DNA of 22,658 nucleotides. It comes from a virus (Duplodnaviria; Heunggongvirae; Uroviricota; Caudoviricetes). The notes below the pieces were generated by a model. It was not told the DNA's origin. It did no database searches and saw nothing but the letters and a program-made list of their open reading frames with translations. Each line of letters begins with the position of its first letter. Position 1 is the first letter of the stretch. The DNA lies in IMG/VR virus record IMGVR_UViG_2529292919_000022; one strand, given 5' to 3'. Below are positions 14,465 to 15,226 of this stretch, in pieces. A program made the translations under genes and the position numbers.

Positions 14465-14824
14465 ATGGCATGTACAACCATTTATAAAGATCGTCGCCGC
14501 ATGGTAACAGCGGCACTCCGGCGGATGCAACGTAAAACAGGTAGTAATCTGCTCGTCGTTGACCTCCCGGACGGAGAAATAACAACGATAGAAATAACTG
14601 AACAGTTCATGAACCAGTTGTTATTACGATTTGAGGGTCTTACCCGTGTTGAATATGGACGGACGGAAGGAGAAGCAACAATCCGTACCGCATACCAGAA
14701 TGCCATCGGTATTAATCAACACACGGAATATCTCACTGAATCAGGGAAACTGATAGTGGACGGCCTTTTAAAAGAGGTTGTTGACTACGTAAAAGAGAAA
14801 TATATCAGTGGAGGAATTAACTGA
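14465..14824 (+). CDS. Hypothetical protein (119 aa), first gene of a three-gene coupled cassette
   Basis: ORF track MACTTIYKDRRRMVTAALRRMQRKTGSNLLVVDLPDGEITTIEITEQFMNQLLLRF...; its stop overlaps the next start (TGATG). No recognisable domain. Confidence 0.45.
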   Translation: MACTTIYKDRRRMVTAALRRMQRKTGSNLLVVDLPDGEITTIEITEQFMNQLLLRFEGLTRVEYGRTEGEATIRTAYQNAIGINQHTEYLTESGKLIVDGLLKEVVDYVKEKYISGGIN

Positions 14825-15033
14825 TGTCTGATTTATCCCCTCTTATACACGAAAAAGTACAGATCATTATGACGATTGAAAATGGTCAGGTAATAAATAC
14901 CCGTAAAGTTCACAATAACGAGATGATTGCCAGCATGGATACCTTCTTATGGATAGCAAAGAAAGCGGGATATCAGGTAATCGCTCCTGATCTGGAGGAA
15001 ATCGGTGACATTAACAGCAATACGAATTCCTGA
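14824..15033 (+). CDS. Hypothetical small protein (69 aa), candidate antitoxin-like partner
   Basis: ORF track MSDLSPLIHEKVQIIMTIENGQVINTRKVHNNEMIASMDTFLWIAKKAGYQVIAPDLEEIGDINSNTNS; strong GGAGG RBS at 14811-14815; acidic C-terminus; its 3' end overlaps the next ORF by 29 nt. Confidence 0.4.
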   Translation: MSDLSPLIHEKVQIIMTIENGQVINTRKVHNNEMIASMDTFLWIAKKAGYQVIAPDLEEIGDINSNTNS

Positions 15034-15226
15034 GTGGGTGCACCTGCAGGCGGTCCGTGTTCTCCGCCAGTTCAGAGCCAGACGAATTCATCCCTGTCGT
15101 ATGCACGGCTCCGGAAACCTGAGTCTGAGGGTTAATCGCCGCTGGCGGCTGCTGTCCCGAGACGGCGGCCAGAACTGGGAAGTAATGAGCCATGAACGAT
15201 ACAGCAAAGTTAAGGACCGGAAATGA
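15005..15226 (+). CDS. Putative RelE/ParE/HigB-superfamily toxin-like protein (73 aa)
   Basis: GTG at 15005 is preceded by GGAGGA at 14994-14999. The C-terminal region GSGNLSLRVNRRWRLLSRDGGQNWEVMSHERY resembles the terminal beta-strands and catalytic tail of HigB/RelE/ParE toxins (for example the ...WRI...GDAY...YH and ...REVMTHKEYD endings). Recalled from memory, not searched. Confidence 0.4.
   Translation: MTLTAIRIPEWVHLQAVRVLRQFRARRIHPCRMHGSGNLSLRVNRRWRLLSRDGGQNWEVMSHERYSKVKDRK

Follow-up and report, generated by a model that had tools for sequence, protein, structure and literature searches.

Do three small, overlapping genes of a defective prophage form a toxin-antitoxin (TA) cassette, or are they separate genes of an early operon, of which the last encodes a toxin-like protein? 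The question is raised by a 22,658-nucleotide stretch of tailed-phage DNA (IMG/VR record IMGVR_UViG_2529292919_000022; hereafter the window, meaning the whole stretch), in which three open reading frames (ORF1, ORF2 and ORF3) between positions 14,465 and 15,226 were likened in an initial annotation to three-component TA systems of E. coli prophages (regulator, antitoxin and ParE-like toxin), with unfamiliar partner proteins ahead of a RelE/ParE/HigB-like toxin ORF. Based on the findings in this work, ORF1-3 are separately exchangeable genes of the early operon and no fixed TA cassette, a reading that we hold with middling confidence. ORF3, which by its profile match belongs to the Pfam family PF24732, is in our estimate an evenly balanced candidate for an antitoxin-less accessory effector made upon prophage activation, plausibly an RNase of the HigB/RelE type.

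Assortment of the three genes among mobile elements

As judged from sequence comparison, ORF1, ORF2 and ORF3 are real genes rather than chance ORFs, because each matches a PHROG family (phrog_1737 with E = 1e-51, phrog_340 with E = 6e-24 and phrog_1525 with E = 3e-27, respectively) and each has dozens of homologues. The sequence confirms the three plus-strand ORFs of 119, 69 and 73 residues as first described, with a cTGATGt overlap at the ORF1/ORF2 junction and a 29-nt overlap of ORF2 with ORF3 (15005-15033); the strong Shine-Dalgarno (SD) sequence ascribed to every one of them was found 5′ of ORF2 and of ORF3, as GGAGGA in both cases, but not of ORF1, whose SD is a weak GGGAAA. Overlapping or tight gene junctions are found throughout the operon, from 13471 to about 17156, and therefore the overlaps do not mark off ORF1-3 as a unit. 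In a metagenomic homologue (P0132), ORF2 and ORF3 are fused in frame and a frameshift follows, which shows how the 29-nt overlap can fuse both genes.

Loci were collected by anchoring on each of the three genes in turn. Anchoring on ORF3 gave 82 lambdoid loci, in all of which an ORF1-like gene precedes ORF3, and ORF2 is missing from 29 of them, where ORF1 abuts or overlaps ORF3. Among the 80 loci anchored on ORF1, 54 carry both ORF2 and ORF3, 25 carry neither and one is truncated, and anchoring on ORF2 retrieved Salmonella and Klebsiella prophages in which ORF3 is absent and the gene directly after ORF1 and ORF2 is already the next one of the backbone. With both lambdoid sets pooled, the ORF1-ORF3 pair without ORF2 occurs in 30 of 138 loci; some loci (L056 and L011) carry two tandem ORF2-like copies. 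The existing combinations are all three genes, ORF1 with ORF3, ORF1 with ORF2, and ORF1 alone. Additionally, near-identical ORF3 proteins are found paired with ORF1 proteins of no more than 55% identity, and the reverse is found too. ORF3 also occurs in 'Aeromonas phage AsXd-1' (MH178096, L169; 96% protein identity) and 'Elizabethkingia phage EKP1' (OM284015; 89%); the gene order around it in AsXd-1 is that of an enterobacterial lambdoid early operon, and the stated hosts of both phages look doubtful.

A species-level scan, in which a narrower alignment of the PF24732 family was used to query one genome per species, recovered 30 loci, all of them in Enterobacterales, and in these loci also the PF24732 gene overlaps or abuts the gene upstream. 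This upstream neighbour is a DUF2857 gene in 12 loci, an Rv2179c-like 3′-5′ exoribonuclease gene in 11, an ORF1-like gene in three (lambdoid prophages of Pantoea) and a gene for an unknown protein of 61-80 residues in four; in 27 of the 30 no neighbour resembles ORF1 or ORF2, and an ORF2-like neighbour is present in none. The downstream neighbours are varied and include STY4528-family proteins, Dam methylase, Toprim primase and unknown proteins. The DUF2857 loci (L171-L178, L180, L182, L187 and L189, with the PF24732 gene at about 2300-2760 in each) are integrative and conjugative elements (ICEs) of the PFGI-1/SPI-7/ICEclc type from Pantoea, Cedecea, Xenorhabdus, Pectobacterium, Brenneria, Proteus and Providencia, and have the order TIGR03764 ParB, TraR, DUF2857, PF24732 and STY4528-family protein; the STY4528-family replication gene is the next called gene in nine of the 12 and lies some 0.3-0.4 kb further downstream in L177, L180 and L182. 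The ParB-DUF2857 pair corresponds to BisD/BisC, the transfer-competence activator of ICEclc (PMC7423338), and the PF24732 gene of these ICEs may be co-expressed with this activator. Shi, a growth-arrest protein of ICEclc, was weighed as a possible relative but dropped, on position only, its gene lying between parA and bisD and the PF24732 gene after the bisC-like gene. The exoribonuclease loci (L179, L183, L184, L186, L188 and L192-L198) are prophage-like regions, in the first five of which a Dam-type methyltransferase gene follows the PF24732 gene, and in Serratia phage OS31 the gene upstream of PF24732 is ParB-like. As far as seen here, PF24732 is confined to mobile elements of Enterobacterales, where it recurs in activation operons of prophages and ICEs without a recognisable antitoxin. 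Its gene is best described as a small accessory one that, bringing its own 5′ overlap, has entered the conserved early or activation operons of different types of mobile element.

Neither ORF1 nor ORF2 has a Pfam match, and none of the three proteins has a match in NCBIfam or PADLOC; profiles of ORF1 and ORF2 found no relatives among PDB sequences, with only two chance matches at E <= 10 for ORF2, and no helix-turn-helix (HTH), ribbon-helix-helix (RHH) or known antitoxin fold or family was found in either protein. ORF1 had been called unrecognised, and agrees with that description in having no family other than phrog_1737 and no solved relative; with its predicted fold, a helical bundle plus one beta-hairpin, it is no recognisable regulator or antitoxin. 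Family and structure searches likewise bear out the description of ORF2 as a small, acidic protein (isoelectric point, pI, 4.8) without recognisable HTH or RHH. In addition to phrog_340, ORF2 matches phrog_4792 (E 2.6e-5) and phrog_2379 (E 7e-4); a weak similarity links it to two phage anti-repressor PHROGs, in their C-terminal part, and PF27490 is recorded for a few homologues of ORF2. That ORF1 and ORF2 might be diverged duplicates sharing a beta-hairpin and a helix was ruled out (hhalign E 0.45).

The foremost alternative is that ORF1-3 constitute a true type II or tripartite TA or abortive-infection module, in which ORF3 is the toxin, ORF2 and/or ORF1 neutralises it, and the prophage is stabilised or superinfection is aborted. 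The co-occurrence of ORF2 and ORF3 in all 54 complete loci of the E. coli ORF1-anchored set argues for such a module, as does the ORF1-like gene, which stands upstream in every ORF3-anchored lambdoid locus and is still kept in the Pantoea prophages at 25-28% identity; however, ORF3 occurs without ORF2, ORF2 without ORF3, and ORF1 alone in 25 of 80 loci. Coupled, overlapping genes with an acidic protein directly upstream of a basic (pI 11.9) protein of toxin fold are also consistent with it, but neither ORF1 nor ORF2 has a DNA-binding domain, and the 27 PF24732 genes that lack both partners stand beside genes for enzymes or activator subunits of 185-560 residues, not antitoxins. A precedent for TA genes in a lambdoid immunity region is provided by PaaR2-PaaA2-ParE2 (PMC8630535), whose genes are lysogenically expressed, whereas ORF1-3 occupy a repressor-controlled early operon and have no promoter-like site of their own in our scan. 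Such a module appears unlikely, if still to be reckoned with. The regulator-antitoxin-toxin cassette of the initial annotation is unsupported, as the genes assort independently, ORF1 has neither a DNA-binding nor an antitoxin fold, and no separate promoter-like site was found in the scan; the locus should be left out of any count of new three-component TA or abortive-infection systems.

ORF3: family, predicted fold and conserved residues

The RelE/ParE/HigB-like character first ascribed to ORF3 holds in both family and predicted fold. Its match to PF24732, at 70.8 bits (E 9.9e-20), lies far above the 24.4-bit cut-off, with residues 11-68 on model positions 2-67 of 67; the family is named 'ParE-like toxin domain' in Pfam, and near-identical RefSeq proteins are named 'ParE family toxin-like protein'. 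On this match ORF3 is a member of a family that is catalogued yet unstudied: no mention of PF24732 or of 'ParE family toxin-like' was found in the literature searched, and PF24732 is not among the 13 BECR-fold families of the latest survey (PMC11980606). The 'ParE-like' family of Gerdes 2025 is PF15781, which is different from PF24732. A HMMER scan of 1.84 billion representative proteins yielded 114 clusters, nearly all of 62-90 residues, and all 93 diverse relatives tested match PF24732, with 24-63% identity to ORF3.

The RefSeq (PGAP) call starts ORF3 at the internal GTG at 15038 (62 residues), and the gene is left uncalled in some genomes. The 73-residue form starting at GTG 15005 is better supported, because the N-terminal sequence MxLTAIRIPE is conserved (T4, A5 and P9 being invariant in 35 homologues), relatives have an ATG at this position, and one strand of the sheet in the predicted model is made up of residues 2-5. 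ORF3 is a local peak of GC content (0.57, compared with 0.36-0.47 in neighbour genes), and an antisense ORF of 76 residues (15011-15241) was taken as a shadow of the GC-rich gene.

The AlphaFold2 model of ORF3, built with 35 homologues, has a pLDDT of 88.5 and the order beta-alpha-beta-beta-beta-alpha, with a single helix (residues 10-24) before a three-stranded sheet. Its first Foldseek matches in the PDB are YoeB, YoeB/ParE, GraT, YafQ and RelK, all weak (E about 0.13, TM about 0.5), and in the ranking of structural matches RelE (6.5), HigB (5.8), YoeB (5.6) and YafQ (5.4) come ahead of ParE. ORF3 is accordingly modelled as a minimal RelE/HigB/ParE-superfamily (BECR) fold of about 70 residues. 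Profile-HMM and structure searches on 15005-15226, in which the absence of a RelE/ParE fold would have spoken against the first description, predicted that fold, and therefore the fold assignment, as a predicted structure, stands.

Only A16, R48, H63 and Y66 are conserved in at least 90% of the 93 members, and all four are present in ORF3; the family motif reads WRLLS...SHExY. The resemblance of the ORF3 C-terminus to HigB, noted at the outset, is real but weak: the 93-member profile aligns residues 34-66 with residues 59-91 of Proteus vulgaris HigB (hhalign E 1.5e-3, probability 17%; the HigB sequence was checked and is identical to PDB 4mct_B), pairing R48 with HigB R73 and Y66 with HigB Y91. 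Of these two HigB residues, R73 makes contact with the scissile phosphate, and a role as general acid has been proposed for Y91 (PMC5027501). Secondary Pfam matches of family members are weak as well, to HigB-type models in three of the 93 (E 0.0025-0.02) and to ParE_toxin PF05016 in one (E 0.042), and hhalign of the family profile with E. coli YoeB gave no significance. The conservation pattern suggests that R48, H63 and Y66 make up a site for catalysis or for the binding of a specific ligand.

Between the last two strands of the model lies the turn SRDGGQNW (residues 51-58, window positions 15155-15178), an Asp-box/BNR-like motif. All the spurious matches of ORF3 to PDB sequences and to Pfam BNR were produced by this turn, and a profile sequence search of the PDB with ORF3 found no relatives.

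Probable early-operon setting and a possible role for ORF3

Repeats of the ATCAA-N7-TTGAT type form two clusters, one in the gap between the cro-like and cI-like genes and one after the cI-like gene (Table 1), which together contain six of the 16 window-wide operator-pattern matches, including the sole perfect one. The second cluster lies over two pairs of promoter-like hexamers found by a promoter scan, TTGACA-18-TAACAT (13387-13416) and TTGACT-17-TAAATT (13430-13458), and this region is probably an OL/PL-like control region with the promoter of the operon that contains ORF1-3. The layout of the two clusters resembles OR/PR-PRM and OL/PL. On the plus strand between 13459 and 15005 no promoter-like (sigma-70-like) site was found by this crude consensus scan, which could miss an internal promoter. 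Because of the tight gene run described above and the lack of a further promoter-like site before ORF3, ORF1-3 are most simply read as lying within the leftward early operon, about 1 kb downstream of the operator-rich PL-like region, the promoter of which is about 1.5 kb upstream of ORF3.

We propose that ORF3 may be deployed as follows. First, derepression of the PL-like promoter would switch on the operon, by analogy with lambda PL and the alpA-bisDC genes of ICEclc, and ORF3 would be produced through translational coupling to its upstream gene. Upon production, this small and highly basic protein could, with no antitoxin dedicated to it, act as an effector directed at RNA, most plausibly as a ribosome-associated mRNA endonuclease of the HigB/RelE type with an active site formed by R48, H63 and Y66, and host translation could thereby be damped or re-programmed, or competitors targeted, during induction or infection. 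A HigB/RelE-like RNA-directed activity is the most likely one because ORF3 is extremely basic, carries the conserved Arg-His-Tyr set and fits the RNase members of the superfamily better in structure; deployment at induction or infection is suggested because ORF3 lies downstream of a repressor-controlled promoter. In its boldest form, which we regard as a speculative and rather improbable extension, PF24732 proteins would form a class of their own among RelE/HigB-type ribosome-dependent RNases, miniature in size and antitoxin-less: offensive 'solo toxins', rather than addiction or abortive-infection modules, that lambdoid and other prophages and PFGI-1/SPI-7/ICEclc-type ICEs of Enterobacterales would carry in activation operons, to shut down or re-programme host translation or to attack competing elements when the element itself is switched on.

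Several points weigh against this proposal. The HigB alignment is weak, the HigB residues H54, D90 and H92 have no conserved counterparts in PF24732 (H63 being conserved instead), and the fold match cannot tell RNase-type from gyrase-poison-type members. The constant ORF1-like gene before ORF3 in the lambdoid loci, and the acidic ORF2 beside the basic ORF3, which is the classic TA charge pattern, leave room for a neutralising partner; antitoxin families are known to swap between related toxins, and therefore the variety of neighbours is no proof that an antitoxin is lacking. Pairwise identities of the three proteins across loci are correlated (Spearman 0.55-0.66), although a minority of the pairs are discordant; this moderate correlation is expected for linked genes and does not discriminate linkage from co-evolution. 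The crudeness of the promoter scan counts here as well.

Another explanation, which we consider doubtful, is that ORF3 has a non-toxic, possibly inert RelE fold and, in the early operons of mobile elements, is a small accessory factor that binds nucleic acid or protein; as examples, it might modulate a neighbouring nuclease, methylase or activator, or, with the same doubtful standing, might be a decoy that draws off components of host TA or defence systems. Many elements without a plausible antitoxin, in which the PF24732 gene stands beside genes for Rv2179c-like exoribonuclease, Dam, Toprim, BisC-like or ParB-like proteins, agree with such a factor, and so do the small size of about 70 residues, with one helix fewer than in canonical toxins, and the unconserved HigB counterparts. 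It is opposed by the strong conservation of the Arg-His-Tyr set in a family whose members are otherwise 24-63% identical, and no positive evidence for any binding partner was found. Poisoning of DNA gyrase in the manner of ParE, which the names in Pfam and RefSeq and the single weak PF05016 match would suggest for ORF3, is very unlikely, given that RelE, HigB, YoeB and YafQ all outrank ParE structurally, that the conserved Arg, His and Tyr are at positions typical of RelE/YoeB/HigB active sites, and that ORF3 is one helix short of the N-terminal two-helix hairpin of ParE toxins.

We return to the antitoxin-less effector as the preferred reading. PF05016 itself mixes RelE and ParE proteins (PMC11980606), and therefore the ParE name says little about mechanism; the database label 'ParE family toxin-like' is no reliable guide to the target. 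The scientific interest lies in the family rather than in this copy, namely in some 114 clusters of Enterobacterales-restricted proteins of about 70 residues with a RelE fold and a conserved Arg-His-Tyr set. If PF24732 proteins are active RNases without antitoxins, a fold that is otherwise known almost exclusively from TA modules would gain a role in host takeover.

The prophage itself is HK97-like, lambdoid and, in this window, defective; Stx2f phage phi467 and prophages of nine complete E. coli genomes match the region with 99.9% identity. Its tape-measure gene is split into two overlapping ORFs, and an IS66-family element interrupts its right side. Between the tail genes and the cro-like gene there is only an IS21-family element, and therefore the replication, lysis and head genes are missing. 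The Pfam label 'YdaS_toxin' of the cro-like gene is a misnomer for Cro analogues (PMC8630535), and toxin names in this lambdoid prophage region can mislead. An Rfam scan of the entire window found nothing.

The 184-bp gap before ORF1, initially taken as non-coding, contains a conserved 32-codon gene, which is present in all 80 ORF1-anchored loci (tblastn) and is kept as a protein in 166 of 170 related loci, in 85 distinct nucleotide versions. Its C-terminus LxL[KR]KAYG (...L[FY]L[KR]KAYG[KR]) and the position of its stop are conserved in all versions, and its product has no family match. The imperfect hairpin within the remainder of the gap has no U-tract and therefore is no obvious intrinsic terminator. 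After ORF3, most relatives carry a gene of 137-140 residues (MNDKRTVS...), found at full length in L012, L063 and many ORF1-anchored loci; the 14-codon stub at this place might be its remnant, which would indicate a deletion or replacement here.

Table 1. Coordinates of the features discussed, in window positions.
Feature	Position	Strand	Remarks
Tape-measure gene	7794-9248, 9170-10375	-	two overlapping ORFs
IS21-family element	10391-12192	-	istB 10391-11173, istA 11170-12192
cro/YdaS-like gene	12219-12500	-	matches Pfam 'YdaS_toxin'
Repeat cluster in cro/cI gap	12509-12605		ATCAA-N7-TTGAT-type repeats
cI-like HTH+S24 repressor gene	12635-13324		S24 peptidase-type; separate from ORF1-3
Probable PL/OL-like control region	13375-13461	+	promoter-like hexamers overlapped by operator-like repeats
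Gap remainder without assignment	14281-14362		82 bp
Imperfect hairpin	14323-14346	+	CTGGTCGTGG-ATTT-CCACAACCAG; 9/10 pairs; within gap remainder
32-codon small gene	14363-14461	+	MKNRNAYKTALLMANAGYWSVAILFLRKAYGK; pI 10.4; stop 3 nt before ORF1 ATG
ORF1	14465-14824	+	119 aa; ATG start; phrog_1737; backbone gene of early operon
ORF2	14824-15033	+	69 aa; ATG start; pI 4.8; phrog_340; optional, sometimes tandemly duplicated
ORF3	15005-15226	+	73 aa; GTG start; pI 11.9; Pfam PF24732 'ParE_like'; phrog_1525
14-codon stub	15223-15267	+	MNNKPSNQKESIDD; ATG overlaps ORF3 stop (ATGA); read from sequence
Gene downstream of ORF3	15257-15838		193 aa; no Pfam or NCBIfam match
IS66-family element	18766-21381	-	

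Comparison with known systems

Among known systems, a three-component one is PaaR2-PaaA2-ParE2 of prophage CP-933P of E. coli O157:H7, in which PaaR2 is an HTH regulator that takes the cI position and is lysogenically expressed (PMC8630535). However, ORF1 has no HTH by Pfam or by predicted fold, and the cI-like repressor is here a separate gene; the ORF2 profile has no similarity to any solved chain, the PaaA2 entries included; ORF1-3 lie downstream of the PL-like region rather than in a lysogenically expressed position, and the trio is not conserved as a unit. Type II TA modules in general are distinguished by a dedicated, co-travelling antitoxin, whereas ORF2 is absent from 30 of 138 lambdoid loci and 27 of the 30 species-level loci have unrelated neighbours, and by an antitoxin with an RHH, HTH, Phd/YefM, AbrB or other known domain, none of which was found here.

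Compared with the RNase toxins RelE, YoeB and YafQ, ORF3 is much smaller and has no match at the sequence level, and no antitoxin gene of the RelB, YefM or DinJ type adjoins it. HigB of P. vulgaris/Rts1, the ribosome-dependent mRNA endonuclease of HigBA, is the known toxin with which ORF3 could be aligned, but ORF3 is about 20 residues shorter, with one N-terminal helix fewer, and differs at the three HigB positions named above; the HigB profiles PF05015 and PF09907 do not reach their thresholds, ORF3 having no match to them at E <= 1. In HigBA the toxin gene comes first and HigA after it, whereas no HigA-type HTH antitoxin gene lies downstream of ORF3, where the genes vary between elements. 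From the 'ParE-like toxin domain' family PF24732 itself, ORF3 differs in nothing, and on its profile match it is a full member.

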